From an uncultured virus (IMG/VR IMGVR_UViG_3300020048_000016) (Duplodnaviria; Heunggongvirae; Uroviricota; Caudoviricetes), in the IMG/VR virus record IMGVR_UViG_3300020048_000016: a stretch of 55,378 nt of DNA; one strand, given 5' to 3'. A program made the position numbers and the translations under genes. Positions within the stretch are counted from its first letter, which is position 1. Every line of letters begins with the position of its first letter. The notes beneath the pieces were generated by a model. That model saw nothing but the letters and a program-made list of their open reading frames with translations. It did not search any database and was not told where the DNA came from. Shown here piece by piece: positions 2,911 through 50,418 of this stretch.

Positions 2911-3230
2911 TGCAAAAAGTAATTGACTATTTATTATCAATTGGATATGATTGTGTTAAATCACCAAAGTCTGGTTATTCATCTATTGTACCTGGTGGTA
3001 TATGTAGTATCTATAAAAAAGATAATTCAAGTTGGATCTTTGGATTAAATGAAAAAGGACATCATCCAACATTAATTTATCCAAGACCTTATAAAGATAT
3101 ATCTTATGAGAAAGACGGTGAATTTTTCATAGGAAAAACTAAAATGAGAGATTCTGAAATACATACTTATCTAGATAGTAAGAAACCTGATGAAATTTTT
3201 GAAGAGTTAAATTATATTTCAAGAGTATAA
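2910..3230 (+). CDS. Hypothetical protein
   Basis: ORF coupled to the upstream stop. Confidence 0.6.
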   Translation: MQKVIDYLLSIGYDCVKSPKSGYSSIVPGGICSIYKKDNSSWIFGLNEKGHHPTLIYPRPYKDISYEKDGEFFIGKTKMRDSEIHTYLDSKKPDEIFEELNYISRV

Positions 3231-3563
3231 AAACTTTTCGTACTTCTTTTCATCCTTTATATTAATCTCCATAATTGTTTCTTTTAATGGTGTTGTGAAT
3301 GTTATCAAAACATAAGAAAGATAATCACTCTCAACACCATTTAATAATTCATCTAAGAGTAATTCTCTCTCATCTTCTTTATTCAAACGTTCACCAGTAT
3401 CTATTCTAAGATTGATCTTCCAGGGAAGTCTTTTTGTAACATAAGTAAGTACAGACATCTTATATACATTAGGTTGTCTAATCTGTCTTTTAAATAAAAA
3501 TACTGCAAATATAACTACCTTAGTTATGTATTGGTGATAAACTTCATTTATATCAAGTTTCAT
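3219..3563 (-). CDS. Hypothetical protein, third gene of the GT2 cluster
   Basis: Starts 3 nt after the barrel gene; contains internal ERELLLDELL motif. Confidence 0.55.
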   Translation of the reverse strand: MKLDINEVYHQYITKVVIFAVFLFKRQIRQPNVYKMSVLTYVTKRLPWKINLRIDTGERLNKEDERELLLDELLNGVESDYLSYVLITFTTPLKETIMEINIKDEKKYEKFLYS

Positions 3564-3566
3564 ATC

Positions 3567-4496
3567 TTATTTATCAGAAACCTTCTTGTTCGCAAAGGTA
3601 TAATAAACTTTAAATGTAAATGTGTTATATAAATAAGTATTGAAATTTCTAGAAGATAACGCAAACTCATAATTCCATTTAGATTTTAAGTCAGTAGTTA
3701 CTTTTAAATCTAAATTGAACATATACATATAATAATTATCAATCTCTTGAACACCTGCTCCAAAATAAAACTTTGTAGTAAACTTATCTTTATAAACCGG
3801 TTTATAAAAACCATATCCAATATTATATTGATTTATATAATTAGGACTGAAATAATATGGTGACCACTCACCACCATACATTTTTCTAACTTTAAGATCC
3901 ACATATGATCTATTTTTAATAGTAGATATAAATCTCATAGTTTGAAACCATCTACGATTACCATCACTTATATCATTATAAGCTAAACTATTAACTAACG
4001 TTAATCTTCTAGTTAATCTAAAATCAACAGATAAACCGGTGAATGAAGAAATGTATCTAAGATTATTAGTTACCGGTGTACCAATAGTTTCTCTTTCTCT
4101 GTATAATTCATATGCAAACTTTTTTCTACTATATCTTATATACCCATCATAAAACATAGGTGACCAATCTTTTGAAGATAAGAATGATAAGTTAAAACTA
4201 CCACATAATCTATTACTATATTTATATGATACATTTGTTCTTAAATCAGTATAATGATTTTCAAGACCATTATAGAAATAACATCTCCATCCGATCATAG
4301 GAGTTACTGATAGTAATCTATCTGGTTTTAATGTGTCTTTTGGATGAAATGTGAAATTCTTTTCATAACCAACATATTCTTTAAATGATGATTGATATGC
4401 ATTATCATTTGTTAAATATGTATGTGATAGAAATCTATCTTGTGACATACTAAAAAATGTTATAAACGAAATTAAAAATACTAGTAAACTTCTCAT
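3567..4496 (-). CDS. Predicted outer-membrane beta-barrel protein
   Basis: Signal-peptide-like MRSLLVFLISFITFFSMSQ; alternating aromatic strands; FTFKVYYTF near the C-terminus; ATGA overlap with the GT2 gene. Confidence 0.55.
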   Translation of the reverse strand: MRSLLVFLISFITFFSMSQDRFLSHTYLTNDNAYQSSFKEYVGYEKNFTFHPKDTLKPDRLLSVTPMIGWRCYFYNGLENHYTDLRTNVSYKYSNRLCGSFNLSFLSSKDWSPMFYDGYIRYSRKKFAYELYRERETIGTPVTNNLRYISSFTGLSVDFRLTRRLTLVNSLAYNDISDGNRRWFQTMRFISTIKNRSYVDLKVRKMYGGEWSPYYFSPNYINQYNIGYGFYKPVYKDKFTTKFYFGAGVQEIDNYYMYMFNLDLKVTTDLKSKWNYEFALSSRNFNTYLYNTFTFKVYYTFANKKVSDK

Positions 4497-5797
4497 TTCC
4501 AAACTCTCTTTCTTTTGAATAACTCTGACAAATAACCTGCTAATGTTGCTGGAGTCATAATGAATTGATATAAAAACATATAAAGAATGTAACTAACATT
4601 CTTATTTAACATACTTATATTTAATTTGTTAAGTTCTTTCTTTTGTATTCTGAAAATAATAGAACTATAAATGAAAGTTATTGGTAATAAATAAAGTGTC
4701 ATACTACCAGCAAGTAAGTGAAAGCCAAATATAAGTGCGATTAAAACACCCGGAACAAATATAAATATGAATGTTAAATCTATATAAGGAAACATTAGAT
4801 TATACCAAATGAAAAAAGCATACATCTCTCTTCTGAATAATAAATTAGGGTATCTTCTGAATGCTTCAATTAAACCTCTGGACCATCTTTTTCTTTGTCT
4901 GTAAAATATCTTATAAGTCGTTGGTACATTTGTCCAGCAAATTGCTTCTTCCGAATGATCTATATAATAACCAGCATTTAACATAGCCCAAGAAAGAACT
5001 ATATCTTCACCGATCTTATCTGGCCAACCACCAACTTCTTCTAATACGGATCTTCTATAAATTGAAAACGCACCTTGTGCAACCAGAGTTCCTTTATACA
5101 TAGATTGTATTCTCTTAACTGCAGATATACCTAAAAGGTAATCCCAGTCCTGTAACTTAGCAATAAATGAATCATTATAATTTTTACATAATATAGAACC
5201 AGCAACCGCAGCATAAGTATCATCTTTGTTAAGCATAGTATTTACTATACTTTTAAGAGCACCTGGGTGTAATTCAGAATCCGCATCCAATGTTAGTACA
5301 TATTCACATCTTATTTCTTTAAGTGCTAAGTTTAAAACATTTGCTTTACCAATATTAACTGGTGCATCACAAAGTCTAATTCTAACTTTTCTTTTACTTT
5401 TATTTGCGATGAAACCTAATACAATTCCTTTTGTATTGTCAGTTGATCCATCATTTGCTACAATAACATCTATAAAATTATCATAATCCTGATCAATAAT
5501 TGATTTAAGAGTTCTTTCAATAGTATCTTCTTCGTTATATGCTGCTACAATTATAGATATTTGAGGACATTCTTTTAAATCATCATATTTAGGTCTTTTA
5601 TCCATCAATAACGATGAATTTACAAATGACATAGCGACACCTGGTATAAGAGCCATACCGGTAACGCCGAACCAAGCCAACCAAAGTGGAACATATCTAG
5701 ATATCTCACCGATCCAAGGAATTGCAAATATCAAACTGAATAATAACCAAAGGATTGAATAGATTATAGCAGTCCTATATTTGCTTTTTAGTTTCAT
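4493..5797 (-). CDS. Processive membrane GT2, PgaC/IcaA-like poly-GlcNAc synthase
   Basis: AAYNEE, NDGSTD, GKA, LDAD, GAFSIYR, GED and QRKRW motifs; N- and C-terminal TM helices. Confidence 0.8.
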   Translation of the reverse strand: MKLKSKYRTAIIYSILWLLFSLIFAIPWIGEISRYVPLWLAWFGVTGMALIPGVAMSFVNSSLLMDKRPKYDDLKECPQISIIVAAYNEEDTIERTLKSIIDQDYDNFIDVIVANDGSTDNTKGIVLGFIANKSKRKVRIRLCDAPVNIGKANVLNLALKEIRCEYVLTLDADSELHPGALKSIVNTMLNKDDTYAAVAGSILCKNYNDSFIAKLQDWDYLLGISAVKRIQSMYKGTLVAQGAFSIYRRSVLEEVGGWPDKIGEDIVLSWAMLNAGYYIDHSEEAICWTNVPTTYKIFYRQRKRWSRGLIEAFRRYPNLLFRREMYAFFIWYNLMFPYIDLTFIFIFVPGVLIALIFGFHLLAGSMTLYLLPITFIYSSIIFRIQKKELNKLNISMLNKNVSYILYMFLYQFIMTPATLAGYLSELFKRKRVWK

Positions 5798-6956: not shown

Positions 6957-6964
6957 TATATTTG
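6957..6964 (+). promoter_or_regulatory. Bacteroidota -7 element (TATATTTG)
   Basis: TAnnTTTG ending 15 nt before the ATG at 6980. Confidence 0.55.
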
Positions 6965-6979
6965 TATAAAATTAGAGAT

Positions 6980-7828
6980 ATGGATTATAATAAGGAAGAG
7001 TTATTCGATAAAATCGAAAGATTGAAAGTTGAAAAGATTGGTGGAACAGTTGTTACCAAGTATAACGACAATGTTATTAGAACAGTTCACGTTTCTCCAA
7101 TATATGAGGTCTTTGATATTGTTAAGTATTTAAAAGATAAGATTTCTCTTATCGAGAATAACTTTACTATTAAAGAATATGGACTTAGAATTAAAGGAGG
7201 TATTCAATACCTTCAATTATATTCTGATGAAATTACTATTGGTGGTAAAAAATTCATTAAGATGTTCAACATCTTAAATTCAACTGATAAAACTAGAAAG
7301 TTGAGTTTCAACACCGGTCTTTATTGTGTTAGTGACAATTACTTCCTTGTCTCAGGTGGTAGTGATGTTTCTTTAACAAAAAGACATACTACAGGTGTGA
7401 CAAACTTCGCTGAAACCGCAAGTGAATCATTAAACGGTGAAACATTTAATGAGCAAGTTGAATCATTAGATAGTTTAGTTGGACACAAAGTAGCATTCTC
7501 AAAAGTTAGAGAGTTGATCTTAGGTGATAAAGAAAACATACCTAATGTAAATCATAAAAAGTTTGATGCTTTTAGAAACTCAATTTATTGGGACATACAA
7601 AAAGATCTTTCAGATACGAGTAAAAACATATTATGTACTAGATCAGAAAGACTTAAAACGGTTGAAAAGAAAGATGATTTTTACATACAAGCATTTGATG
7701 TGCTAAAACACTATCTTAAATTGTTTAAGAAAGAAGATTCTAGTATCATCAAAAACGAAACTGAGAAGATTATGAAGATCACTCAGTCTGCAGTTAGAAA
7801 TGATATCTTAGAAATGTTAGGTATTTAA
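6980..7828 (+). CDS. Hypothetical protein, DUF932-like, with C-terminal tag
   Basis: ILNSTD..KLSFNTGLY..KRH pattern; ends VRNDILEMLGI. Confidence 0.5.
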   Translation: MDYNKEELFDKIERLKVEKIGGTVVTKYNDNVIRTVHVSPIYEVFDIVKYLKDKISLIENNFTIKEYGLRIKGGIQYLQLYSDEITIGGKKFIKMFNILNSTDKTRKLSFNTGLYCVSDNYFLVSGGSDVSLTKRHTTGVTNFAETASESLNGETFNEQVESLDSLVGHKVAFSKVRELILGDKENIPNVNHKKFDAFRNSIYWDIQKDLSDTSKNILCTRSERLKTVEKKDDFYIQAFDVLKHYLKLFKKEDSSIIKNETEKIMKITQSAVRNDILEMLGI

Positions 7829-8614: not shown

Positions 8615-8884
8615 ATGGAAAATAAATATATTAAAACTTTTGAATCATATATGTCAAACGATGAAATAATATCAGCTATAGAAAAACTTTCAAAAGATGA
8701 GAGAGAATTTTTAATCAACTTCGGAGACGAAAGTGTTTTGAGAAAGATGTTATCATCAGTAGAAATAAAATCTTGTAACAAACTTGTTAAAAAGGGAGTT
8801 ATGGAGAAAGGAATGTTTGATGGATCTGAAGGTAGATCTACGGTTGTTTATTATGTAGATTCATTTGTTAGAAAAAGATTATAA
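8615..8884 (+). CDS. Hypothetical protein with N-terminal leader (KYIKTFESY), possibly winged-helix
   Basis: Leader motif; TTATATATAG immediately upstream. Confidence 0.6.
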   Translation: MENKYIKTFESYMSNDEIISAIEKLSKDEREFLINFGDESVLRKMLSSVEIKSCNKLVKKGVMEKGMFDGSEGRSTVVYYVDSFVRKRL

Positions 8885-10806: not shown

Positions 10807-12207
10807 TTATTTTGGTAGTTTATTTAACTCATCATCAATCAAATCTTTGATAGTATTGACATCATCTTCTTTACCTTTTCTTAGAAATTCTGCGTAACTA
10901 GATACCTTTTTCATCTTCTCTGGATCATCTTTGATCATACCAAGTTCTTCTGCTGCTTTTTTAGCTTCTTCACTTTTTTGCTCATCTCCGATAACACCAA
11001 CTATATCACTATAACTTCTTTCAATAGTTTTACCATCTTTTTCAAACTTAACACTTTTATCATTGTTTTGATCATTAAGTGCAACCATTTGTCCAACACC
11101 TACAACCTCAGCCTGTTCATCTGGTTTCTTTTTTGCATCATATTTATCTTTTTCAATACCTGGTAATAAATAGATAACTTCTTTCTTATCACCATATATT
11201 TTATTAAGTTTCTCATAGTCCATTCCCTGACCTTCACCTTCTTTAATTCCAAGTAATTTCTCAGCCTCTACTTTTGATAATAACTTATCAACTGGTTTAT
11301 CAAATTTACTTCCTTTATCAGTTTCGATTGAAAATCCTTTAGTCTCATCAAATGCGGTTACTTTACCTTTACCAATAAGTTCTTTTTTAGGTGCTTTTGC
11401 ATCATATCCATCCATCATATAATAGATATCTTTACCTACAAGTTCTTTTTCTTCTTTAACACCATATGAACCAAGAACATCAGTATCATCACCTACTTCA
11501 CCAACACCAGCGAATTTGTTAACTTCTTCTTCTGTTATTGCATTAACAAATTCATACATTTTTTTAACCATAACATTGTTAACCCAGTTCATTACTGCCA
11601 TTTTCTTCTTATCATCTGTAAGACCAGCAATAAGTTTTTTCAATTGTGGAAGATGTGCTTGATCAACAAATCCTTTTGCATCCGCTGTTCTTTGAACTGC
11701 TTTACCTGATTTCAACTCTGGTTTAATTGCAGGTACAGGAAGTGCTTTACCAACTACAAATGATTTAGCAGAACCTGCTCCATATTGAAAGAATACTAGT
11801 GTTTTATTTCTTACACTTTCCAATTCATATTGAACTTCTTTTTTTAATTTCTCATCATCAAAACCTGCTATGAATTCCTGAATACTTTTGGTACTAAGAA
11901 CACCATCATCAGGATCAATTATCTTAGAAATAATATCAAAACAATCTTGATCATTAAACTGTGGTTTTGCATTATATTCTTTAAATACACCAGCAAATAA
12001 ACTTTCTGAACTCTTGACACCAAATAGTTCCGTTTGAAAGTATTTTTTAATATCTTCAAAAGATGTCATTTTTTTAATTTTATCCTGTGCTTTCTTAAAA
12101 ATACCTTTAAGAAAGTCAAGAATTTTACCGAATATTGCCTCTTCATTTACTGGTTCAGCATTTGAGTTCTTAAAAGACTCGAATTTTTTAATATATTTAT
12201 TTTCCAT
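10807..12207 (-). CDS. Hypothetical Lys/Glu-rich protein with N-terminal leader and duplicated C-terminal module
   Basis: MENKYIKKFESF...NEEAIFGK; two IY..YDAK..G.G modules. Confidence 0.7.
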   Translation of the reverse strand: MENKYIKKFESFKNSNAEPVNEEAIFGKILDFLKGIFKKAQDKIKKMTSFEDIKKYFQTELFGVKSSESLFAGVFKEYNAKPQFNDQDCFDIISKIIDPDDGVLSTKSIQEFIAGFDDEKLKKEVQYELESVRNKTLVFFQYGAGSAKSFVVGKALPVPAIKPELKSGKAVQRTADAKGFVDQAHLPQLKKLIAGLTDDKKKMAVMNWVNNVMVKKMYEFVNAITEEEVNKFAGVGEVGDDTDVLGSYGVKEEKELVGKDIYYMMDGYDAKAPKKELIGKGKVTAFDETKGFSIETDKGSKFDKPVDKLLSKVEAEKLLGIKEGEGQGMDYEKLNKIYGDKKEVIYLLPGIEKDKYDAKKKPDEQAEVVGVGQMVALNDQNNDKSVKFEKDGKTIERSYSDIVGVIGDEQKSEEAKKAAEELGMIKDDPEKMKKVSSYAEFLRKGKEDDVNTIKDLIDDELNKLPK

Positions 12208-12256: not shown

Positions 12257-12721
12257 ATGAATAAATATTTAGAAGCTGTTTCAGAGTTCCACGAAACATT
12301 TGGAGCACCAATTTTAGAAACACCTCAAATTCCATCAAGCGATAGATGTGAATTAAGAGTATCTTTATTACAAGAAGAATTAAACGAATTAAAAGAAGCA
12401 ATCGAGAAAGGAGATGTTGTGGAGATTGCTGATGCACTTGCTGACTTACAATATGTTCTATCTGGCGCAGTTTTAGAATTCGGTATGGGCACTAAGTTCG
12501 ATGAATTATTTGATGAAGTACAACGAAGTAATATGAGCAAAGCGTGTGATTCACAACAAGATGCATTAGCAACACTTTCACACTACAAACAAAAAGATGG
12601 CACTGAAGGTGTTTATAAAGAAGAAAACGGTAAATGGTTAGTTTACAGAAAAGAAGATAACAAAGTTTTAAAATCTGTTAACTACTCACCTGCAAACTTA
12701 AAAGATATTGTAAATGGATAA
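12257..12721 (+). CDS. MazG-like NTP pyrophosphohydrolase (PRA-PH-like)
   Basis: EFHETFG, LQEELNEL, EIADALAD, EVQRSNMSK, KVLKS. Confidence 0.88.
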   Translation: MNKYLEAVSEFHETFGAPILETPQIPSSDRCELRVSLLQEELNELKEAIEKGDVVEIADALADLQYVLSGAVLEFGMGTKFDELFDEVQRSNMSKACDSQQDALATLSHYKQKDGTEGVYKEENGKWLVYRKEDNKVLKSVNYSPANLKDIVNG

Positions 12722-13073
12722 TCAATATGTTAGGAATAAACTTTCTATAAAACTTAATATGATAATGAGTCAAGGCAAGAAGACAGAAGGTATTGTTGCT
12801 GATGCAGTTATTGATAAATTACTAAGAATAGATAGTGAAAACTATTATGGTTTTGATAACTTTGGTTTATATGAAATAATCTGGGATAAACCAAAGTTAT
12901 TTCCTGTTGCAATTATGAGACTAGATGATGGTTATACTTGTGAAAAAAGTGGAAGCAATTATATTCTTTTTTATAAAGGTGCTTATGAAAAAGCATTATT
13001 TTGGTCACAGATCATAGATTTTAATGTAAAAGAATATAGAGAAGAGCAATTAAAATTACTACTAGATGAATGA
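12714..13073 (+). CDS. Hypothetical protein with C-terminal tag
   Basis: Ends EYREEQLKLLLDE. Confidence 0.6.
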   Translation: MDNQYVRNKLSIKLNMIMSQGKKTEGIVADAVIDKLLRIDSENYYGFDNFGLYEIIWDKPKLFPVAIMRLDDGYTCEKSGSNYILFYKGAYEKALFWSQIIDFNVKEYREEQLKLLLDE

Positions 13074-13315
13074 AAGAAGACTTATTTCTAAAATCTGTTA
13101 TAAATATTTCTACTAAAATTGGAACATATCATACATTAGGAATGCCTAAGTATTTTGATAATGGATCTAAGGTAGATGTTTATCACCATTTTTATTTTGA
13201 TTTAATATCAATTGATAAAAATGGTGAGCTTTATATTTTAAGTAGAAACCAATTTGATAAAAACTTTTATACTATAGAAAATTGGAGAGATAAGCAATTG
13301 AAAAAACTGATATAA
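13070..13315 (+). CDS. Hypothetical protein with C-terminal tag
   Basis: Ends FYTIENWRDKQLKKLI. Confidence 0.6.
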   Translation: MKEDLFLKSVINISTKIGTYHTLGMPKYFDNGSKVDVYHHFYFDLISIDKNGELYILSRNQFDKNFYTIENWRDKQLKKLI

Positions 13316-13332: not shown

Positions 13333-13680
13333 ATGGAAAATAAAAGAATAGAAAAAGAATTTAATTCATTCAAAAAGAAAATGATCGGATCAAATCTAAT
13401 TTGGTTCGAATCACTTCCTGTTAGGAAAAAATGGGATCTATTTTATGAATGGAAAAGAGTTAAATACCACAGAGGTAAAAATATAAAAGAACCTAAGAAG
13501 ATCAGAAAAAGAACTTACGACTTCATTGCAAGAAGTTATAAGATGGTTGAAATTATGTTATACCCAGCAAGTCTTAAACATTTCATTATAGAAAGAAAAA
13601 ACTCATACAAATATAAAGTATCAAAAGAGACACTTAGAGATAAAACAATCGATATGCTTTTTGATACAAATAAAAAATAA
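13333..13680 (+). CDS. Basic hypothetical protein with C-terminal tag
   Basis: Ends ETLRDKTIDMLFDTNKK. Confidence 0.6.
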   Translation: MENKRIEKEFNSFKKKMIGSNLIWFESLPVRKKWDLFYEWKRVKYHRGKNIKEPKKIRKRTYDFIARSYKMVEIMLYPASLKHFIIERKNSYKYKVSKETLRDKTIDMLFDTNKK

Positions 13681-14936: not shown

Positions 14937-15204
14937 TTATGTTGTATATGTAGGAGATGGTCATAACAATTTCACATATGGTAAAAAGTATAGAGTTATG
15001 AGTAATCTACATACAACATCATCTTTTTACTATATTAATGTAATAGACAATTTAGGAGAAAGTCAAATTGTTCCAACTGATGGAGAAGAAGAGATTACAA
15101 ATTATAAATTTTCAACTAGACGATACGGACCTGCTACAAAAAAAGTTGAATATTTCATAACTATTGAAGAATTTAGAGATAGAAAACTAAACGAATTATT
15201 ATGA
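14929..15204 (+). CDS. Hypothetical protein, FTxGKxY family, with C-terminal tag
   Basis: FTYGKKYRV; ends YFITIEEFRDRKLNELL. Confidence 0.65.
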   Translation: MSSYVVYVGDGHNNFTYGKKYRVMSNLHTTSSFYYINVIDNLGESQIVPTDGEEEITNYKFSTRRYGPATKKVEYFITIEEFRDRKLNELL

Positions 15205-15380
15205 GCAAAGAGATGTGTACAGAAGAAATAAATTGTATTAATTGTAATGATCAATTTTTAACATATTGGTGGATTGAAGAAGGTATGCCAGTTGAAATGT
15301 TTTGTTGTAGTGATTGTATGGAAGAATACTATTCTATAGAAAGTAGGATAGATAGGTTAATTGAAAATATTATAAATTGA
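15201..15380 (+). CDS. Small Cys-rich (zinc-finger-like) protein, 59 aa, not in ORF track
   Basis: CINC...CCSDC; ends SRIDRLIENIIN. Confidence 0.6.
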   Translation: MSKEMCTEEINCINCNDQFLTYWWIEEGMPVEMFCCSDCMEEYYSIESRIDRLIENIIN

Positions 15381-15382
15381 AT

Positions 15383-15883
15383 ATGAAAGAAAAGAAATTA
15401 AAAAAAATAGCAAAATTGATATCAAATCAATTACATGTCATAGAATCTCCAATGAAAGGAGAAGTAGAATATAGAGCGGAATATGACTCAGAAGTTTCTG
15501 ATAAATTAAAAAAATTTATACTTAATGTTATACAATATAAAGAAAACTTAAGTATCACTATATCCGAAAAACATTTTACTATTTCAACAAATGATATTAA
15601 AAATATTAAAAAAAGTAATAACAATAGCAATTCCATTAATAAATATTCAAACTCAGATGAGAATTATTTAGAAATATTTGTAGATGAGAAAGGATTTTAT
15701 TTAAACTACGGATATAGAAAAAGAAGTAGATATACAGATGAGGAAATTTTTAATGAATTACTACCAATAGTTAAACAAAGAAACAAAGAGATAAACTCTG
15801 AAAACTTTAATGAGATATGGGAAGAGGTAATGATCGAATCTGGAATAATGAGAGATAATAACTTAGATGAGTTAGGAATATGA
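15383..15883 (+). CDS. Hypothetical protein with C-terminal tag
   Basis: Ends MRDNNLDELGI. Confidence 0.6.
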   Translation: MKEKKLKKIAKLISNQLHVIESPMKGEVEYRAEYDSEVSDKLKKFILNVIQYKENLSITISEKHFTISTNDIKNIKKSNNNSNSINKYSNSDENYLEIFVDEKGFYLNYGYRKRSRYTDEEIFNELLPIVKQRNKEINSENFNEIWEEVMIESGIMRDNNLDELGI

Positions 15884-16056
15884 GTGACGTAACTAAAGAG
15901 CAATGGGAAAGCCTAAGAGAAATGATAATTGGTGAATTATCCGCTTTTCTAAAAGAATGTACAATTTGTAAAAACAAATACAAAGATTATTTAGATAATA
16001 AAACAGTTTGTATAAATTGTGATAGAGATCAAAAGATAGATAACTTACTTAAATAA
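15880..16056 (+). CDS. Small zinc-finger-like protein, 58 aa, not in ORF track
   Basis: CTIC...CINC; ends DRDQKIDNLLK. Confidence 0.65.
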   Translation: MSDVTKEQWESLREMIIGELSAFLKECTICKNKYKDYLDNKTVCINCDRDQKIDNLLK

Positions 16057-17061: not shown

Positions 17062-17306
17062 AACACCCATCTAACTATTTGTTAAAAAGAGGTGACATAA
17101 TCGTTTGTATTACACACAACTGGGAAACCTTTACATACGGAAGGCAATATGAAGTTCTTATGGATCAATTTGGCCCCGATAGAATGAGTATTGTTGATGT
17201 TATGAATGATAGAGGTGATAGATATATGCCTGCTTCCAACTACTTTGTTACTCTAGATGAATGGCGCGAAATGAAAATAGATGAAATAATAAAACCAGTC
17301 GATTGA
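17046..17306 (+). CDS. Hypothetical protein, FTxGKxY family, with C-terminal tag
   Basis: FTYGRQYEV; YFVTLDEWREMKIDEII. Confidence 0.65.
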   Translation: MDQRIKHPSNYLLKRGDIIVCITHNWETFTYGRQYEVLMDQFGPDRMSIVDVMNDRGDRYMPASNYFVTLDEWREMKIDEIIKPVD

Positions 17307-22446: not shown

Positions 22447-22527
22447 AGAGTATATATAAAAAAAGAAACCCAAGAAAATTTTCTTGGGTCAGTCTAAGAA
22501 TACTATTCTTAGAGGGGGAAGTTCTTA

Positions 22528-23169: not shown

Positions 23170-23235
23170 GTATATTAAATTTTTATTATATATGTTATAT
23201 ATTAAATAAATTATTTGTTTTTTTGATTTTCCCTT

Positions 23236-25196: not shown

Positions 25197-25202
25197 ATTT
25201 TA

Positions 25203-25532: not shown

Positions 25533-25626
25533 TTTTTATTATATTTTTCTTTATATATTAAATTATCTCACTACTATATTTTTTTTAAATTTTATATATT
25601 AATATATAAAGAAAAATACTAATAAT

Positions 25627-36514: not shown

Positions 36515-36745
36515 ATGGCAGGTAATACTAAACACAGAAAAGATCACAAAAAGAAACTTGAAGCTAGAAAAAACAGATTAGCACAAGAAAAAGCACAGGC
36601 TCAAAAATACCAAAAAGAATTCATTATGAATTTAATTAAACAAGAGCAAGAAAAAGGAATGTTTGAGAATAACCCAACTATTAATGGACCTATCATCGAT
36701 GGACCAATGATTGATAGCACCGTTATTGAAGGACCTTCTATATAA
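36515..36745 (+). CDS. Small basic hypothetical protein
   Basis: K/R-rich N-terminus; I(N/D/E)GP repeats at the C-terminus. Confidence 0.65.
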   Translation: MAGNTKHRKDHKKKLEARKNRLAQEKAQAQKYQKEFIMNLIKQEQEKGMFENNPTINGPIIDGPMIDSTVIEGPSI

Positions 36746-36973: not shown

Positions 36974-38656
36974 ATGACAAAAAAAATATCAACCGCGCTC
37001 ATCTCAGTTTATGATAAAACTGGATTAGAAGAAGTGGTAACCAGATTAGTTGACCTAGGTGTAACTATATACTCTACAGGAGGAACTTATGACTTCATAA
37101 AAAATTTAAACCAACCGGTAGTATCAGTTGACTCATTAACAGAATTTCCTGAGATATTAGGTGGTCGTGTTAAAACATTACATCCAAAAGTGTTTGGTGG
37201 TATTTTGAATCAGAGAGACTCTAAGAGCGATCAAAAAGAGATCAAGAAGCATAAGATACCAGAAATTGATTTGGTTATCGTAGATCTTTACCCATTCGCT
37301 GACACCGTTAATGATGAAACAAAAAATCACGAAGATATAATTGAAAAAATTGATATTGGTGGTATTTCTTTATTAAGAGCAGCAGGTAAAAATTACAATG
37401 ATGTTATAGTCATAGCAAGTAAAGATCAATATCCACTTTTATTAGAAGTAATTAAAGAAGGTACTTCCGAACTAGAAGAAAGAGAAGAGTTCGCTATAGA
37501 TGCATTTAATATAACATCAAACTATGATGCTGAGATATTTAAATATTTATTAGATGGTAACCTTGAAATACCAGAAGGTATGGGTCAATTCGGTATGCAA
37601 CAAGGCCAATCAGGTCTTTCAATAAATGTATCAAAAGATGATCACAACTTAAATGATTTCCTTTTATGCTGGGAGAAGTTTGGACAAAGACCAAATAGAA
37701 TTTTAATTCACAATACATATTCTTCTAAGTTATTCAACAAAGCAATTAATGATTTAATTTTAGATAAAAATGTTTTCACAGAAGTAATTCCTGATAGTGA
37801 AGAACTTATTATAAATGATAAGATGTTTGTTAAGTTAGATGAAGATTGTTATTTATCTTATATCGTTGCTGACAGAAATATGGATAACTCATTCATTGAT
37901 TCTATAACATTCTATTACAATAATGGTTATGATAAAGTTCAAGACTTTGTTGAATTATTAAACGAATGTGTTCTTGACTTCTGTGAAGATGATTCTAATA
38001 AATTAAACACTATTGGTTTATCTCAAAATGGTTTAGAATTGGAACCAGTTAACTTTCACAACATCGATTTAGAAAACATTGAAATGTTCTACAATGAACA
38101 AACATTCAAATCAGTTGAGAAAGCAATAAAGAAAATAAAGAAAGCAGATAAAGGATTGACCGTATTATATGGTGATAGAGGAACTGGTAAAACTTCAATA
38201 ATTAATCACTTAGCAACTAAGTTGGATAGAATTATAATGTTCATTCCTAATAATATGATCGAACACACTATAAATAATCCAGATTTTAGAAGATTTATTA
38301 AAAAATATGAGAGACCTATTATTGTTTTAGATGATTGTGAAATGTTATTTAACGAGATGTATAAATCAAATCCAATTTCAAATAACTTACTACAAATGGT
38401 TGATGGGTTTTTATCAGATACGATGAATGTAAATATAATTGCTTTATTCAATACAGATAACGAAGATGATATAGATGAATCATTATTAGATTGTAATAAT
38501 TTAATCGATGTGATAGAATTTGAGTTGTTATCTACCGAAGAGAGTAATGAACTTGCCAAACATTTAGAAAGTAATAAAAAATATAAAAACAAAAACAGAG
38601 TTATAGATATAATAAAGAAAAGATCTAGTAACGAAGCAAGTAAAATTGGATTTTAA
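36974..38656 (+). CDS. PurH IMP-cyclohydrolase (MGS-like) domain fused to a C-terminal AAA ATPase
   Basis: ALISVYDKTG, STGGT, GGRVKTLHP, DLYPF, IDIGG, RAAGKN in the first ~190 aa; GDRGTGKT and IIVLDDCE later; no transformylase domain. Confidence 0.85.
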   Translation: MTKKISTALISVYDKTGLEEVVTRLVDLGVTIYSTGGTYDFIKNLNQPVVSVDSLTEFPEILGGRVKTLHPKVFGGILNQRDSKSDQKEIKKHKIPEIDLVIVDLYPFADTVNDETKNHEDIIEKIDIGGISLLRAAGKNYNDVIVIASKDQYPLLLEVIKEGTSELEEREEFAIDAFNITSNYDAEIFKYLLDGNLEIPEGMGQFGMQQGQSGLSINVSKDDHNLNDFLLCWEKFGQRPNRILIHNTYSSKLFNKAINDLILDKNVFTEVIPDSEELIINDKMFVKLDEDCYLSYIVADRNMDNSFIDSITFYYNNGYDKVQDFVELLNECVLDFCEDDSNKLNTIGLSQNGLELEPVNFHNIDLENIEMFYNEQTFKSVEKAIKKIKKADKGLTVLYGDRGTGKTSIINHLATKLDRIIMFIPNNMIEHTINNPDFRRFIKKYERPIIVLDDCEMLFNEMYKSNPISNNLLQMVDGFLSDTMNVNIIALFNTDNEDDIDESLLDCNNLIDVIEFELLSTEESNELAKHLESNKKYKNKNRVIDIIKKRSSNEASKIGF

Positions 38657-39014: not shown

Positions 39015-40146
39015 AGAGTTCGATAAACTTGACAAAAAAATTAATGGACAAAATTTCCATGAAAGCTACAGAACAATAAATGTAGTTATGACCATATTAT
39101 CATATTTCGGTCACATAGCTTCCATATTCCTAGCTTTCTTTATGCTATCAAAAGTACTTTTTGGTGTTATGGAAAGTAAACCAGTAGTATATGTAGTAAC
39201 AATTATAATGTTATCAGCAATAGAATTACTTAAGAGAGATATATTTGGAAAATTCGCAAAACTTTATTTAAAGTTAAGATCATTTACAAAAGATGTTTTA
39301 CCTTTATTCTTTTTAAGTATTGCTATAATCGGTATATCTTTTTACTCATCGCTAAAAGGTGCATCTGAATATTCATCAAAAGGTGATAAGATAGAAGCAG
39401 ATTCAAAAGAAATTCTTAAAAAGAATATCGATAGTTTATCTAAACCATATGAGTTAAAAATAACTTTAAAAGAAAAAGAGGTTGCTAGTTTAGAATCTGA
39501 TTTAAATGGTCTTAGATCACAACAAAGACAATTAAATGATCTTGCACTTTCTGGTTCATTAACACCAGCACAGAAGAAACTTCTTTCTAGTTTACCTAAA
39601 CAAATAAAAGAAATAGAGTTACAGAATAAACCAACGATTGATGCTAAGAACGCTGAGATAGATGCAATTAAATCTGATTTAGAAAAGGAAATAAAAAAAT
39701 ATGAGACTTCACATAATTCCGAGACAGACAAAAAGAAAAGCGATAATTCTAAGAATTCTATTGCATTCATAATATTCTCTACTCTTATCGAGATTGCTAT
39801 ATTAGCAGGTGTTTACTTCAATGACTATTACGATGTTAGATCACATAGAGAAAAGAAAGCTCAGATTGAAAAAGATCCCGGTTTTCAAAAATGGAAACTT
39901 TATAGTCAAATATTATCAATGATATACACAGAAGATACTAAGATGAATCAAAAACTACCATCCGGCAAAAGTATAATTGATATGTGTAAGACAAATGATA
40001 TAATAATTCTTAATAAAGATTTAACAGACTTCCTAAAAACAATGGCAACTCTTGGAGTTATTAAAGTTTCTGGTAGTACAAGATACATAAGCAAAGCGAG
40101 AGAACTTTCGTTTGAAGCTCTAAACAAACATTTCAATATTGATTAA
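39004..40146 (+). CDS. Membrane protein with long coiled coil
   Basis: Three N-terminal TM segments, coiled coil, a further TM segment. Confidence 0.7.
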   Translation: MKIKEFDKLDKKINGQNFHESYRTINVVMTILSYFGHIASIFLAFFMLSKVLFGVMESKPVVYVVTIIMLSAIELLKRDIFGKFAKLYLKLRSFTKDVLPLFFLSIAIIGISFYSSLKGASEYSSKGDKIEADSKEILKKNIDSLSKPYELKITLKEKEVASLESDLNGLRSQQRQLNDLALSGSLTPAQKKLLSSLPKQIKEIELQNKPTIDAKNAEIDAIKSDLEKEIKKYETSHNSETDKKKSDNSKNSIAFIIFSTLIEIAILAGVYFNDYYDVRSHREKKAQIEKDPGFQKWKLYSQILSMIYTEDTKMNQKLPSGKSIIDMCKTNDIIILNKDLTDFLKTMATLGVIKVSGSTRYISKARELSFEALNKHFNID

Positions 40147-40406
40147 TGAAAGTAGAAATAGGAGACACACTAGTATTCACCGGCAATAAAGCCGGTGTTT
40201 TACATTATGACAACTTTATTGTTGGTAAACAATATACAATTAGAGATATATCTGTATTCTCATATGGATTAGATGATATTTATCATGAACACAGTGTTGC
40301 AGTTCTATTCGAAGATGAAAAATATGGAACATATATGCACGATCTAGATAAGTATTTTGAAAAATTAGATGAGTACAGAGACAAAAAAATAGATCAAATA
40401 ATATGA
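40146..40406 (+). CDS. Hypothetical protein, FTxGKxY family, with C-terminal tag
   Basis: FIVGKQYTI; YFEKLDEYRDKKIDQII. Confidence 0.65.
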   Translation: MKVEIGDTLVFTGNKAGVLHYDNFIVGKQYTIRDISVFSYGLDDIYHEHSVAVLFEDEKYGTYMHDLDKYFEKLDEYRDKKIDQII

Positions 40407-40944: not shown

Positions 40945-41160
40945 ATGGAGTATTTAGACAAATATGATAAATTAGTCAAAATTCTTACAGAAGAAATTGA
41001 AATCGATGGTAAGAAATATGATCTTAAAGAAGACTTTGAGAAATTTTTCATAAGAGAAAATAAAACTGCTGGAACTCGTGTAAGAAGAGTTATGCAAGAG
41101 TTGAAAAAACTCGCACAAGAAGTCAGAGATGACGTTCAGAAAGAAAAAAAAGACATTTAA
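40945..41160 (+). CDS. Hc1-like (histone H1-like) nucleoid protein
   Basis: DFEKF..NKTAGTRVRRVMQELKKLAQEVR. Confidence 0.75.
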   Translation: MEYLDKYDKLVKILTEEIEIDGKKYDLKEDFEKFFIRENKTAGTRVRRVMQELKKLAQEVRDDVQKEKKDI

Positions 41161-41209: not shown

Positions 41210-41779
41210 ATGAAATACATTAAACTATTTGAAAACTTTGATGGTGGCACACATATAGAAGATGCTAAGTGGATCGTTATATCTCATCTTGGAGAAGTAG
41301 AAGAAATTGAAATAGATCCTAAATGGAATGCTAAAAACTTATTTGAATTTGAACTTCAAGAAATACCAACTTCCAATCAAATAGAAAGTTGCAGAGAACA
41401 TCTTAGTGAAGAAGGTTTCTTTCTAGAATTAAACGAGAATAGTATTGTTGGAACCACCGGCGTAGGTAAGTCTCTAAAAGATTATTATATTAATTGGTTA
41501 AACGAAAACTTCAGTAATATGGATATTTTTGAAAGTAAAGATAGACCAGGATGCATTTTATATAGATATATTGCTAAAGATAATGTATTTATTTACGATA
41601 AAAAAAATGCAGAAGTTTATATAAATTATAATAAAATTTGGTCATTTTTTGAGAGTTATTTTAGTATGGAATATAAGGAAATACAAGAGTTAACTGAGGA
41701 GTGGTTGAGTGAAGCATACAATTTAAAGGGAGTTACAACACAAGCAGTAGCAGCACCCAAAGCACTTGCTGTTGAGTGA
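41210..41779 (+). CDS. WLEETY paralog family member 3, with leader
   Basis: MKYIKLFENF; WLNENF, IWSFF, EWLSEAYNL. Confidence 0.75.
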   Translation: MKYIKLFENFDGGTHIEDAKWIVISHLGEVEEIEIDPKWNAKNLFEFELQEIPTSNQIESCREHLSEEGFFLELNENSIVGTTGVGKSLKDYYINWLNENFSNMDIFESKDRPGCILYRYIAKDNVFIYDKKNAEVYINYNKIWSFFESYFSMEYKEIQELTEEWLSEAYNLKGVTTQAVAAPKALAVE

Positions 41780-41809: not shown

Positions 41810-42412
41810 ATGAAATATATTAAACTATTTGAGAACTTTAACAATGATACATTAGAAGATTCTAAGTGGATTATTATATCTCATCTTGGTGAAGTAGAAG
41901 ATGTTGAGATTGATTCTAGATGGAATGCTAAGAATATATTAAGACTAGAACTTTTAGAAGCACCAACAGAGGATCAGATAAAAAGATGTGAAGAACATCT
42001 TAAAGAAGAAGGCTTCTTTTTATTTATGACCGGTACTGATTGGTCAAAAGAAAATGAAAATGTTAGCATAATAGTAGGAGTTGGTAGTTCGTTAGAAGAT
42101 GTTGTAACCAAATGGTTAGATGATAATTTTAGTAACTTAAAAAGAGTAGATTATGGAACTACTGCATTTTTCACCGAAGATCATAGTTTAAAAAAAATAG
42201 AGGTCACTGATATTCCTAGAAGTGTTATATTTTATACCGATCCTGTTAGTCTTTCACATACTTTCACAAAGGTTAATTGGAGCAAATTGTGGCAATTTCT
42301 TGATCATGATTTATTTTTGAATAGAGATCAGATAAGAGAAATTCTTAAAAAATGGATAGAAAAAACATACGGATTAGAAGATATACCACCATTAGATTGG
42401 GCAAATATCTAA
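41810..42412 (+). CDS. WLEETY paralog family member 4, with leader
   Basis: MKYIKLFENF; ISHLGEVE, WNAKN shared with member 3; KWIEKTYGL. Confidence 0.75.
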   Translation: MKYIKLFENFNNDTLEDSKWIIISHLGEVEDVEIDSRWNAKNILRLELLEAPTEDQIKRCEEHLKEEGFFLFMTGTDWSKENENVSIIVGVGSSLEDVVTKWLDDNFSNLKRVDYGTTAFFTEDHSLKKIEVTDIPRSVIFYTDPVSLSHTFTKVNWSKLWQFLDHDLFLNRDQIREILKKWIEKTYGLEDIPPLDWANI

Positions 42413-44188: not shown

Positions 44189-44923
44189 TTACTTTTTCAA
44201 CACCTCCTTAGTGTAGTACTCATCAAAACCGGTTAACAATTTGCTAACATCATAAGTCTTATCATTAGTGATAACCTCATCGATGAAACCAAATTCCAAA
44301 GCCTCATAAGCATTTAACCACTTGTCGCGTCTTGCAGCTTCTAATACGAAGTCAAACTCCTTTCCGCTATTCTCAGCCAACATCTTAAACAAGATGTAGT
44401 TATACTTCTCAGACTCCATTTGTGAGATACGATTATCTTGAACGTGTCCTTGAGCACCTGAACTAACTTGGTGAATCATTACTTTAGAGAAGTTCAAAGA
44501 AGAACGTTTACCTTTTGTACCTGATGATAGTAAGATAGAACCCATCGATGCTGCCATTCCTGTATTTATTGTTTCAACATCAGAGTTGATATATCTCATA
44601 ACATCTACCATTCCTAAACCAGCCAAAACTGATCCACCTGGCGAGTCGATATGCATTTTGATATCTTTTTTCTCAACAGAATCTAAGTACATTAACTGTG
44701 CTTGAACAACAGTTGACATATTTTGATTAACGACACCAGCAACCCATAATATACGATCTCGCATAAGTCTACTAAAAATGTCCATCTGCGTTACTCGCAT
44801 CTCTCTTTCTTCAAGAATGTATGGTGTCATACTATTCTCTACTTGTTTATCATAGTAGTCTAAATTCATAGAACTTAAACCATTACTCAAAGCATACTTT
44901 TTGAAATCTTTTCCGAAATCCAT
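44189..44923 (-). CDS. clpP: Clp protease proteolytic subunit
   Basis: DIFSRLMRDRI, IDSPGGSV, GMAASMG (catalytic Ser), MIHQ, RDKW..EALEFGFIDEV. Confidence 0.95.
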   Translation of the reverse strand: MDFGKDFKKYALSNGLSSMNLDYYDKQVENSMTPYILEEREMRVTQMDIFSRLMRDRILWVAGVVNQNMSTVVQAQLMYLDSVEKKDIKMHIDSPGGSVLAGLGMVDVMRYINSDVETINTGMAASMGSILLSSGTKGKRSSLNFSKVMIHQVSSGAQGHVQDNRISQMESEKYNYILFKMLAENSGKEFDFVLEAARRDKWLNAYEALEFGFIDEVITNDKTYDVSKLLTGFDEYYTKEVLKK

Positions 44924-46043: not shown

Positions 46044-46289
46044 TTAACTTAATTTTTCAATTTTTAATTTTCTAAACTCACTACGAACTTTTATATCATA
46101 TCTTCTCATAGATATAGTATCACTCTCAGTCGTTGAGAAAAAATCACCACAAGTAGTACACTCATATGATAACCAAATAACATCAACTTTTCTATTTAAC
46201 CTAGCACAATATACCAAATTATTATACTCAATCAAATTCATTGGTCCACCATCACACAAAGGACAATCATTTACTACTTTCTCTATCAT
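46044..46289 (-). CDS. Zinc-ribbon protein with C-terminal tag
   Basis: CPLC...CTTC; ends EFRKLKIEKLS. Confidence 0.65.
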   Translation of the reverse strand: MIEKVVNDCPLCDGGPMNLIEYNNLVYCARLNRKVDVIWLSYECTTCGDFFSTTESDTISMRRYDIKVRSEFRKLKIEKLS

Positions 46290-46534
46290 AAACTTAACAA
46301 TAGTGATAACTTCAACTCTCTTTCTAATTCTTTATCACCTTCACAAATATCAACAATTGCAGATTCAAGAGCAATTTCAATACTCGAATAAAATAAACCA
46401 TCTTCTGATTCCATTAACATATTACCAGGAAATAATACTTGATAAACATAACCAGATACATCTTCCATAATATCAATCTCGTGATTAAACCATTCAAGAT
46501 GTTTAACTACTTTATCTGGTGTATATTCAATCAT
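46286..46534 (-). CDS. Hypothetical protein with C-terminal tag
   Basis: Ends ELERELKLSLLLSL. Confidence 0.6.
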   Translation of the reverse strand: MIEYTPDKVVKHLEWFNHEIDIMEDVSGYVYQVLFPGNMLMESEDGLFYSSIEIALESAIVDICEGDKELERELKLSLLLSL

Positions 46535-47149: not shown

Positions 47150-47191
47150 ATGTTTTGTTTTTAGTTATTATACAAATGTACTAAATAAAAA

Positions 47192-48507: not shown

Positions 48508-48529
48508 TTAACCAATCTCTAGAAAGGAT

Positions 48530-48562: not shown

Positions 48563-48563
48563 A

Positions 48564-49012: not shown

Positions 49013-49022
49013 AAACTATATA

Positions 49023-49625
49023 TTATTTTACAATCTCCAATTCTTTAAGTGCATAATAAACAAAAAGACCAGAGAATATACACATTATAAAGTTTCCAGT
49101 AAAAAGACAATATACTAATAATAAAGATGCGGTTACTAATGAAACAATTGCTGCAATTCTAGCACCCTTCCATCTATCTCTCATATTCAACATTAAGAAA
49201 TCTTTTAAGATATGTCCACCATCCATAGGATAGATAGGTAATATGTTAAATATAAAAAGAATTAAGTTTATAGATGCAAACATAGTTATGAAATCATTTA
49301 CAACGAAATACTGAGCGAATGTTGCAATACCAAATAATAAAAGATTACTAATTGGTCCAGCAGCGTTGATCGAAATAGAATCTCTCTGAGCCATATTAGT
49401 ATCAATAGATGCAGAACCTGCAAATAAACCTACATTGATACCATATACACGATAATGATACCTATTAGCAACAAATGCGTGAGCCATTTCATGTACTAGT
49501 ATCGCAATGAATGCAGATACAAAAAGATTAATATTAAATCCAGTTAAAGGAAGTAATAATAAGAACCAAATACTAACCGTTACTGGTGTTCCTTGAAAGT
49601 CAAATAATTTAAATTGTTTATCCAT
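49023..49625 (-). CDS. Site-2 protease (M50 family)
   Basis: HEMAH, AGPISN, FNILPIYPMDGG; multiple TM segments. Confidence 0.92.
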   Translation of the reverse strand: MDKQFKLFDFQGTPVTVSIWFLLLLPLTGFNINLFVSAFIAILVHEMAHAFVANRYHYRVYGINVGLFAGSASIDTNMAQRDSISINAAGPISNLLLFGIATFAQYFVVNDFITMFASINLILFIFNILPIYPMDGGHILKDFLMLNMRDRWKGARIAAIVSLVTASLLLVYCLFTGNFIMCIFSGLFVYYALKELEIVK

Positions 49626-49647
49626 TTTTTATCTTTTTTATTTATTT

Positions 49648-50418
49648 TTAATCCGCACACGAAAATAAATCATCAAGGCTCATCGAACCACTGATATCTA
49701 TATAAGAACCACCGTATATACCACTAGGTAGTTCAGAAACAAATTCAATTGCTGGTTTATCGCTTAGAATATTTTGAATTCTTTGATCTCTAGCAACTGA
49801 AGTATCATCCATTTCAATTTGTTTCCAACCTCTTTCTATGAATTTATAACTTCTCATAACAGATCTACTATGAGAATACATCTTTGCATTTTTGTTAATA
49901 TAGAAACTAAGGTTCTGACAATGTGCTATCGCATTAGGATAATTCTCATATAAATGTACACCATCCCAACTAACACCACAACAACTGATATCAACATTTT
50001 GAATTAGTTCAACGAAAGCTTGTTCATAATATTTTGAATCTGATGTGAACGCTATACCAGCCTTTAAAGAATTAATAACCGGTCTAATCAACTGAACTAT
50101 TTTAGTTCCTTTCATCCAAGTTCTAGGTTCGTTAATAATTCGAATATCAGTATAAACAGAAGAAAGATCTTTTGGTGTTAAACTCTCCATATAACTATAA
50201 CCTTGTTCTTTCAAAGTAAACTCAACTAATCTACAAGATTGTGCACCAACTAAGATATCGACATCATTAATTGATTGTCCTGCAATTATATCACGAATTG
50301 CACCACCAAATACTCTGACTAATCTTTTTACTTTTATTGAATTTTCATCAATCGGAGTTCGATTGAATAGGAGTTTAGAATCAAATTCTAAATATTCATC
50401 TAATTTTTCTTTTATCAT
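49648..50418 (-). CDS. Nucleotidyltransferase (CCA/poly(A) polymerase head-like, short)
   Basis: FGGAIRDII..INDVDI; carries RDQRIQNIL tag near the C-terminus. Confidence 0.65.
   Translation of the reverse strand: MIKEKLDEYLEFDSKLLFNRTPIDENSIKVKRLVRVFGGAIRDIIAGQSINDVDILVGAQSCRLVEFTLKEQGYSYMESLTPKDLSSVYTDIRIINEPRTWMKGTKIVQLIRPVINSLKAGIAFTSDSKYYEQAFVELIQNVDISCCGVSWDGVHLYENYPNAIAHCQNLSFYINKNAKMYSHSRSVMRSYKFIERGWKQIEMDDTSVARDQRIQNILSDKPAIEFVSELPSGIYGGSYIDISGSMSLDDLFSCAD

Follow-up and report, generated by a model that had tools for sequence, protein, structure and literature searches.

Can a short peptide at the end of many unrelated proteins serve as a common address in the infection of a cell by a huge phage? 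The question is raised by a stretch of 55,378 nucleotides from an uncultured virus of the Caudoviricetes (IMG/VR record IMGVR_UViG_3300020048_000016), which is referred to below, at its full length, as the window. It has a G+C content of 29% and holds about 89 genes. The tag phi-R-[DEN]-x-K-[IL]-x-x-[IL]-[LGIF] (phi, hydrophobic residue), followed by 0–5 residues, forms the end of 10 of its 89 proteins. An earlier note had described this C-terminal tag and had set it beside an N-terminal leader that is carried by other proteins of the window. The present analysis shows that the tag exists, that it is modular and conserved at the protein level, and that it is confined to one clade, belongs to an early gene class and excludes the leader. 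It is probably a docking label with a common reader.

Enrichment at the C-terminus and conservation at the protein level

The window was searched by a six-frame pattern scan together with the gene list. A loose form of the pattern starts within the last 16 residues at 10 of 712 positions, compared with 5 of 16168 interior positions (Fisher p 4e-11). When the last 30 residues were shuffled 2000 times, matches averaged 0.08 and never exceeded 2, and the N-terminal zone of the window proteins gave no match to the loose pattern. The window pattern was drawn from these same data; therefore, out-of-sample tests in relatives are the real control. The closest DNA matches to the window are the uncultured phages LR745206.1 and LR756502.1 (634 and 642 kb), and the Prevotella Lak phages match it weakly. 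These two genomes, LR756501.1 (735 kb, 32% G+C) and Lak-A1 (26% G+C) were the complete relatives used, and all genome-wide figures given below come from relatives and not from the window's own phage. Genes in the relatives were called with our own codon-score heuristic, which gave 590 proteins in Lak-A1 when TAG was read as Gln and 899 under table 11.

A scoring matrix of 12 columns was built from the ten window tags and used with a cut-off of at least 12 bits. Among the 941 proteins of LR745206.1, 56 matches lie within 8 residues of the C-terminus and 11 are interior (p 5e-64); among the 972 proteins of LR756502.1, there are 61 C-terminal and 16 interior matches. LR756501.1 has no C-terminal and five interior matches among 1013 proteins, and Lak-A1 has none and four, respectively, under either reading of its code. 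In LR745206.1, the interior matches with high scores look like chance matches; they fall in proteins such as helicases and an AlaRS fragment. A genome-wide count at C-termini was the check proposed by the earlier note, and the strong excess over interior matches in two relatives, together with the enrichment in the window itself, bears out the existence of the tag. A search that started from no motif led to the same place. The pattern R...phi..phi was the most enriched C-terminal pattern in LR745206.1 and LR756502.1, with 167 and 183 occurrences observed against 13.8 and 14.6 expected. A broad form of the pattern ends 172 of 941 proteins in LR745206.1 and 184 of 972 in LR756502.1 (18–19%; 6–7 expected in each). 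Its excess in LR756501.1 is small (22/1013; 5.0 expected), and Lak-A1 has 3 of 590 (2.2 expected). In the window, the broad form is found in 11 of 89 proteins (0.8 expected), or about one protein in eight, with one of the 11 looking like chance.

Such a signal could in principle be an artefact of composition, of a DNA-level mark at gene ends or of the calling of open reading frames, given an AT-rich genome in which many genes run into the start of the next one. This explanation is scarcely credible. The codons of the conserved residues vary among the window copies (AGA or CGC; TTA, CTA, TTG, CTG or CTT; ATA or ATC), as do the distances from the tag to the stop codon and to the next gene; therefore, the constraint acts on the protein and not on the DNA, and a DNA-level signal is ruled out. 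An artefact of composition is ruled out by the two tag-less genomes of 26–32% G+C, and shuffled C-termini hardly ever match.

Gene classes and the N-terminal leader

Two promoter-like motifs are found upstream of operons, a phage motif, AATATATA, and a host-type box, TAnnTTTG. The latter is the Bacteroidota −7 box and stands, for example, before the genes at 241, 13333, 46769 and 47192. The phage motif in the form TAATATATA lies about 10–40 nucleotides before start codons, for example, upstream of 25203-25532, 29637, 41210 and 53140, and AATATATA also heads the operon with the baseplate-wedge gene. We take the form TAATATATA to recall the T4 late TATAAATA box. The promoter class of a gene was defined as the first motif met when walking up the same-strand run, so that these classes are short consensus matches and not transcripts.

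Tagged genes are shifted towards the host-type class. Only host-type motifs precede 70 of 172 tagged genes (41%) against 131 of 735 other genes (18%) in LR745206.1 (p 8e-10), and 83 of 184 (45%) against 197 of 736 (27%) in LR756502.1 (p 3e-6). The reverse is seen for genes with only phage-type motifs, which make up 35 of 172 tagged (20%) and 343 of 735 other genes (47%) in LR745206.1 (p 1e-10) and 34 of 184 (18%) and 352 of 736 (48%) in LR756502.1 (p 8e-14). In the window, seven tags lie behind host-type promoters, three behind phage-type promoters and one behind neither. The earlier statements that host-type promoters precede several of the tagged genes and that the carriers are of an early class agree with the 7 of 11 window tags and with the enrichment of TAnnTTTG matches in both whole genomes.

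The leader, M-K-[YHW]-[IL]-K-x-[FY]-x-x-F, is found at the N-terminus of 15 of 89 window proteins, 34 of 941 proteins in LR745206.1, 53 of 972 in LR756502.1 and none of the 590 in Lak-A1. Its carriers in the window include 8615-8884, 10807-12207, 29637-31055, 31055-31651, 31680-32267, 41210-41779, 41810-42412, 51703-52017 and 53140-54375. Leader genes belong to the other promoter class: only phage-type motifs precede 26 of 34 in LR745206.1 and 45 of 52 in LR756502.1, and only host-type motifs precede none and one, respectively. The window leaders divide into 11 with phage-type promoters, two with host-type promoters and two with none. The leader, as we see it, loosely recalls the capsid targeting sequence of T4. 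The tag occurs on none of the 34 leader proteins of LR745206.1 (P 9e-4) and on one of the 53 in LR756502.1 (P 1.5e-4). The earlier claim that tag and leader never occur together is, in this way, significant in the two relatives; within the window alone, one of 15 leaders overlaps and the test is without power (P 0.41). That sole overlap, 17318-18007, matches the loose pattern in a chance-like manner, with a matrix score of −7.8.

These classes bear on a virion packaging signal, by which small effectors would be loaded into the capsid and injected with the DNA. The carriers look like the cargo of such a signal, being numerous, small, diverse and quick to evolve, with nothing in common but a short terminal peptide, and T4 offers a precedent: its capsid targeting sequence is a short terminal peptide that addresses the internal proteins and Alt to one place and is the sole common feature of diverse, fast-evolving small phage proteins (PMC3012670). 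The T4 sequence is N-terminal (about 10 residues, on the precursor), belongs to late-made proteins and serves loading into the prohead core; its carriers end up in the virion, and the prohead protease cuts the peptide off. The present tag is unlike it in being C-terminal, with no match in the N-terminal zone, and in sitting on early-class genes that amount to 18–19% of the proteome. Tagged genes are depleted behind AATATATA and enriched behind host-type promoters, so that, as far as promoter matches tell, they are not made late with the head proteins; the tag also excludes the leader of the late class. Virion loading is disfavoured because of these promoter classes, and we consider it improbable.

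A separate observation was made in LR756501.1, which has a sharp C-terminal tag of its own. The sequence D-P-Y-G-E-E-x-W, followed by 1–3 residues, ends 40 of its 1013 proteins, which have unrelated bodies, and occurs internally 67 times (loci L042-L078). The genes with this ending are skewed to host-type promoters (19/40 against 174/973).

Carrier proteins

The proteins that carry the tag have little else in common. Four window carriers, those at 13070, 14929, 17046 and 40146 (81–91 residues), are paralogs; among the remaining window carriers, no mutual similarity was seen, and none of the window carriers has a Pfam or PHROG function. The 56 carrier bodies of LR745206.1 fall into 56 singleton clusters (BLASTP at 1e-3). 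The possibility that all carriers are homologs is ruled out by this result and by the dissimilar window carriers, and the modularity proposed earlier holds. A Pfam match (E <=0.001) is absent from 53 of the 56 LR745206.1 carriers. A further 116 proteins carry the broad pattern; 40 of them, taken from the largest, were scanned, and 37 of these lack a Pfam family. One of the three that were matched is a DNA polymerase fragment. Carriers are short, with a median length of 108–117 residues against 162–163 for other proteins, and are ordinary in net charge, cysteine content and membrane-like segments. For only two carriers of the window did BLASTP give an ortholog in LR745206.1; therefore, the carrier bodies turn over quickly.

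Anatomy of the tag

The logo of 66 tags reads [KLIV]-[SEQD]-E-phi-R-[DEN]-x-K-[IL]-[NDK]-[EQK]-[IL]-[LGIF]. All 66 have Arg at position 0, as the construction of the matrix requires; Lys at +3 is found in 49, and Ile or Leu is found in all 66 at +4 and in 64 at +7. At most two residues follow the tag in 51 of 66. By our calculation of a helical wheel, one face holds Arg 0, Lys +3 and the hydrophobic positions −1, +4, +7 and +8; a helix cap is suggested by Ser, Asp or Thr at −3. The helical nature of the tag, as proposed earlier, is supported by the one structure model made. For the family of 17046-17306, AlphaFold2 predicts an SH3-like barrel and a helix over residues 70–82, with a mean predicted local distance difference test score (pLDDT) of 82.6, and Foldseek matched this model to generic SH3, PWWP and KOW barrels only (E ~0.04). 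The tag is kept in 75 of 79 homologs of 17046-17306 and in 86 of 88 homologs of 15377-15883. In the latter family, the mean identity is 0.77 in the tag window and 0.57 elsewhere (rank 16 of 157 windows), and some orthologs have the ending L-G-I where others have L or F and a further 2–6 residues. A membrane-targeting helix was also considered and dropped: acidic residues are conserved, and a membrane-like segment is found in 2% of the carriers against 3% of other small proteins.

A helix of this kind might have no common reader at all and might be a self-contained element for oligomerisation or stabilisation that reached small genes through recombination or common ancestry. Two points speak for it: the one model places the helix right after the last strand, with no long linker in between, and four window carriers are paralogs. 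Against this, Arg is invariant, Lys at +3 is nearly so and the register is fixed on at least 56 unrelated bodies; all three are also kept in orthologs down to 27% identity. In addition, 11 residues make a short helix for oligomerisation on its own, and related phages with much the same composition lack the tag. A helix without a reader is disfavoured because the register is invariant on unrelated bodies, and it appears rather unlikely.

A reader of a familiar type would be the sliding clamp, bound through a motif of the PIP-box or T4 gp43-tail kind. Like clamp-binding tails (the PIP box, or the C-terminus of the T4/RB69 polymerase), the tag is a short hydrophobic C-terminal motif on many unrelated proteins, the hallmark of clients of such a hub, and its phi-x-x-phi-phi spacing presumably resembles that of the PIP box. 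Clamp consensus sequences contain Gln and an aromatic pair (PIP) or read QL[SD]LF (beta clamp). The 66 tags conform to neither: their logo is marked by an invariant Arg and Lys, with no Gln or aromatic pair. The carriers are small proteins without families rather than replication enzymes. The family-B DNA polymerase of the tag-bearing relatives uses another tail: the fragment at 130568-131992 (minus strand) in LR745206.1 and its ortholog in LR756502.1 have an M-D-I-F-G-G-like tail. No beta-clamp gene (PF00712) was found in LR745206.1. This result and the different polymerase tail argue against a clamp motif, and this identity of the reader is very unlikely. The M-D-I-F-G-G-like tail itself resembles, in our estimation, the clamp-binding tail of the T4/RB69 polymerase, which suggests a gp45-like clamp in the tag-bearing phages; a search with PF02916 (gp45-type clamp) was silent in the phage and in all controls alike and so has no bearing on it.

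Candidate readers

The tag would be a docking helix of some 12 residues at the C-terminus, portable between many accessory proteins that are small, unrelated and quick to evolve and that this clade of huge phages expresses early from host-type promoters. The face with Arg, Lys +3 and the hydrophobic residues would plug into one reader, presumably at an acidic pocket beside a hydrophobic groove. The early proteins would then be handed to an AAA+ or protease machine made later, and the tag would either mark them for removal or tether adaptor-like proteins. Use by an AAA+ or protease machine is favoured because the tag lies at the extreme C-terminus and marks the early class, and because the phage devotes genes to ClpP, PrkA and an ATPase with an IGF tail. 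Taken as a full mechanism, this hand-over is put forward tentatively, as possible rather than probable. The best candidate readers would be a Bcs1-like ATPase with an IGF tail acting with ClpP, and PrkA acting with DUF444.

The first candidate is encoded at 36974..38656 (plus strand). There, an AAA ATPase of the Bcs1/YjoB-like kind, with K-I-G-F as its last residues, is fused to an IMP-cyclohydrolase domain of the PurH type. The fusion is also found in one 70%-identical relative, and the LR745206.1 homolog has the same C-terminal end and no fused domain. A phage-type promoter precedes the gene in four phages, including that of the window. The family has 96 representatives at E <=1e-30. A phi-G-phi tripeptide (IGF, IGL, IGY) lies within the last nine residues of 108 of 126 full-length family representatives, and the C-terminal Gly is invariant in an alignment of 49 of 49 sequences. 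The model of the ATPase has a pLDDT of 89.4. Its N-terminal alpha/beta domain and single classic-clade AAA module align over their full length with B. subtilis YjoB and with heptameric Bcs1 (Foldseek E 4e-13 for YjoB and 8.5e-12 to 4.2e-10 for Bcs1, over 327–373 aligned columns), and phmmer matched 36974-38656 to Bcs1 at E 0.002. Tripeptides of the type [ILV]-G-[FL] are the ClpP-docking peptides of ClpX and ClpA, where they lie in loops and bind hydrophobic pockets of ClpP; that of the present ATPase lies at the C-terminus. Should the ATPase form heptamers as Bcs1 does, the number of its tails would fit the sevenfold ring of ClpP. No description of a Bcs1-like ATPase with a phi-G-phi tail was found in our literature search. 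For the 380-residue neighbour of the ATPase, the ESM Atlas returned only viral clusters without a name.

ClpP, a possible proteolytic partner of this ATPase, is encoded in the window at 44189..44923 (minus strand; Pfam E 1.7e-53). It is of the true ClpP type, with 237 bits for the NCBIfam ClpP model and 71 bits for the head-maturation model. LR745206.1 (75119-75859 and 123556-124221) and LR756502.1 have two copies each, and ClpP is also found in Lak-A1. Directly downstream of the second LR745206.1 copy lies a gene for a 210-residue protein with a tag-like end (122918-123550).

The second candidate, the PrkA and DUF444 (YeaH/YhbH-like) pair, follows the tag through the sample of five records. 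It is present in the three tag-bearing records, at 480112-483419 in LR745206.1, 273831-277133 in LR756502.1 and 22375-25596 in the tag-holding 150-kb IMG/VR relative G001, and in neither of the two tag-less ones. Between LR745206.1 and LR756502.1, the two proteins are 84% and 75% identical. PrkA is reported to be an ATP-dependent protease in B. subtilis (PMC9512850). The IGF-tailed ATPase is present in the two complete tag-bearing genomes and absent from Lak-A1; in LR756501.1, only its AAA module can be aligned.

Several observations weigh against this hand-over. No result shows a binding partner for the tag. Judged by eye from an alignment, two features of classical unfoldases, the aromatic residue of the pore loop and the arginine fingers, are missing in the ATPase clade. 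LR756501.1 combines a different C-terminal tag with an IGF-tailed homolog and has no ClpP of its own. LR745206.1 and LR756502.1 have 460 proteins in common, and as many as 108 other proteins of at least 150 residues share the presence and absence of the tag across the five records; therefore, the phyletic pattern only narrows the field of readers. The promoter classes are matches to short consensus sequences in a genome of 29% G+C rather than transcript data, and an early-made MoxR-like ATPase fits the phyletic pattern nearly as well. A co-fold of the Bcs1-like ATPase (349 residues, one copy) with the tagged SH3-like protein returned a score of 0.00 in two runs, an outcome that counts neither for nor against it.

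The reader could instead be another hub, with the tag concentrating early effectors at one site. Such a hub could be the RNA polymerase of the host, the ribosome or the nucleoid; it could also be a phage factory for replication or takeover, or the early MoxR-like ATPase in the role of a chaperone. The anatomy of the tag and the evidence for an early class fit this docking equally well. The MoxR/AAA_5-like ATPase, an alternative candidate reader, is encoded at 241..1392 (plus strand) behind a host-type promoter. It is present in all three uncultured phages, 72–77% conserved among the tag-bearing ones and absent from Lak-A1. On the other side, specific evidence points to no hub of this kind. The MoxR-like protein is conserved over its full length (42%) in LR756501.1, whose tag differs entirely, and a clear VWA partner is missing: one match below threshold was found in LR745206.1 and none in LR756502.1. 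Docking at another hub is doubtful, yet nearly as likely as the hand-over to an AAA+ or protease machine. Of the common partners suggested by the earlier note, the encoded ClpP and AAA proteins are no more than candidates, and nothing points to host RNA polymerase or a scaffold.

A more elaborate form of the hand-over would join tag and leader into a two-address code. Early proteins from host-type promoters (about 18% of all proteins) would carry the C-terminal helix, the phage-promoter class would carry the N-terminal leader, and a reader would clear or re-deploy the early proteome. At the switch to phage-promoter transcription, the phage-made Bcs1-like ATPase would read the helix. This ATPase, possibly heptameric, would plug into heptameric ClpP via its IGF tails; alternatively, PrkA and DUF444 would read the helix. 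Sister clades would use other tags with the same logic, such as D-P-Y-G-E-E-x-W in LR756501.1. As a whole, the code is a speculative proposal with small odds in its favour.

Relation to known terminal peptides

A shared terminal address peptide is known as a kind, and the tag does not reproduce the full set of defining features of any system with which it was compared. No published description of such a tag was found in the literature, with subscription-only papers outside the coverage.

The SspB tail, a C-terminal ClpX-binding peptide, and the ClpXP degrons of the ssrA and MuA classes are extreme C-terminal peptides, basic and hydrophobic, that tether or deliver proteins to an AAA+ protease. 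The tag, too, is a short basic and hydrophobic peptide at the extreme C-terminus of unrelated proteins. It differs from them in sequence and in being a capped three-turn helix that is often followed by 1–5 residues. Moreover, the phage encodes no ClpX zinc-binding domain: PF06689 is absent from LR745206.1 and the 150-kb relative, with control genomes positive. The MIM1 elements of ESCRT-III are three-turn C-terminal amphipathic helices read by the MIT domain of the AAA ATPase Vps4. The tag resembles them as a C-terminal amphipathic three-turn helix with Arg/Lys and Leu on several proteins, and it differs in register and consensus; in the model, the N-domain of the candidate ATPase is alpha/beta and Bcs1-like, without the three-helix bundle of MIT. 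Encapsulin cargo-loading peptides and microcompartment encapsulation peptides direct cargo proteins of different kinds to a single protein shell by means of a peptide or helix at a terminus. The presence of a terminal peptide on unrelated cargo is shared; the consensus is different, no shell was identified and the early gene class argues against capsid loading.

Copies of the tag in the window

The copies are located here from Arg 0 to +8, with coordinates that replace the earlier positions, which were gene boundaries and not motif sites. Eight of the 12 carriers lie at 12.7–17.3 kb, where a cluster had been noted. All tags up to 40403 are on the plus strand. The first tag, at 7796..7822, is an L-G-I variant (matrix score 18.7) with one residue left before the stop of a 288-residue protein (6962-7828), whose LR745206.1 ortholog retains a similar C-terminal end. 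In the cluster, the tag at 13038..13064 (score 24.0) lies two residues before the stop of a 119-residue protein without a Pfam or PHROG family (12714-13073), and that at 13286..13312 (score 26.7) forms the last residues of an 81-residue protein of the small beta paralog family (13070-13315). A TAnnTTTG box lies directly upstream of 13333-13680, a 115-residue protein with its tag at 13636..13662, five residues before the stop (score 24.2). The tag at 15175..15201 (score 26.6) provides the last residues of a 91-residue member of the paralog family (14929-15204). The 168-residue protein 15377-15883 has an L-G-I variant at 15851..15877, and the 58-residue CxxC...CxxC protein 15880-16056 has a tag at 16024..16050 (score 25.3), each with one residue before the stop. 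The 86-residue SH3-like protein 17046-17306 carries its tag at 17265..17291, four residues before the stop. Outside the cluster, the tag at 40377..40403 (score 25.3) forms the last residues of another 86-residue paralog (40146-40406), which sits in the operon headed by the AAA gene. On the minus strand, 46295..46321 (score 21.4) lies two residues before the stop of an 82-residue protein (46286-46534), whose operon is preceded by TAnnTTTG boxes.

The earlier count of about 14 carriers is reduced to these ten clear cases and two weaker ones. A moderate tag at 46047..46073 (minus strand; matrix score 11.0) ends an 81-residue Cys-rich protein (46044-46289); R, K+3, I+4 and L+7 are present, and +1 and +8 are atypical. 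The 59-residue Cys-rich protein 15201-15380 has a weak tag-like end at 15345..15377 (plus strand) that is one residue out of register and caught by none of the patterns, so that its membership is uncertain. The instance in 49648-50418, formerly listed as C-terminal, is in fact internal. This copy, at 49765..49791 (minus strand), lies 38 residues from the end of a 256-residue nucleotidyltransferase-like protein, in which the PolyA_pol head domain gives a weak match. It is the sole interior match of the strict pattern in the window and is either chance or a tag with an extension. The nucleotidyltransferase-like protein falls out as a carrier on this ground; therefore, none of the enzymes in the window clearly carries the tag. 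The copy in 3219-3563 had been described correctly as internal: the motif-like stretch at 3342..3368 (minus strand) is 40 residues from the end and is probably chance.

Other features of the window

The window also encodes a C5 DNA methylase, FolD, DHFR and MazG-like enzymes in addition to ClpP, as well as a baseplate-wedge homolog, AAA ATPases and many proteins without a family. No tRNA was found in it by ARAGORN. Two runs of N, 20 bases in total, lie at about 36548-36557 (intergenic) and inside the 411-residue reading frame 53140-54375. A 1381-residue protein (32304-36449, plus strand) has no Pfam or PHROG match; it is found in pieces, at 34–48% identity, in LR745206.1 and LR756502.1 and is absent from LR756501.1 and Lak-A1. 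A 71-residue protein (40945-41160, plus strand) matches the chlamydial histone-like Hc1 family (PF07432, E 1.8e-16), and a phage-type promoter lies upstream of it.

Significance

The tag is a sequence handle for early accessory proteins in metagenomes, which are likely to be host-takeover and counter-defence factors. It would also be a portable peptide for the control of proteins in Bacteroidota. If one helix addresses a sixth of the proteins of a giant phage, its reader would give hundreds of unannotated proteins a shared fate, which could be timed removal, delivery or localisation. If true, this would reveal how an infection that involves about 1000 genes is organised in huge phages.

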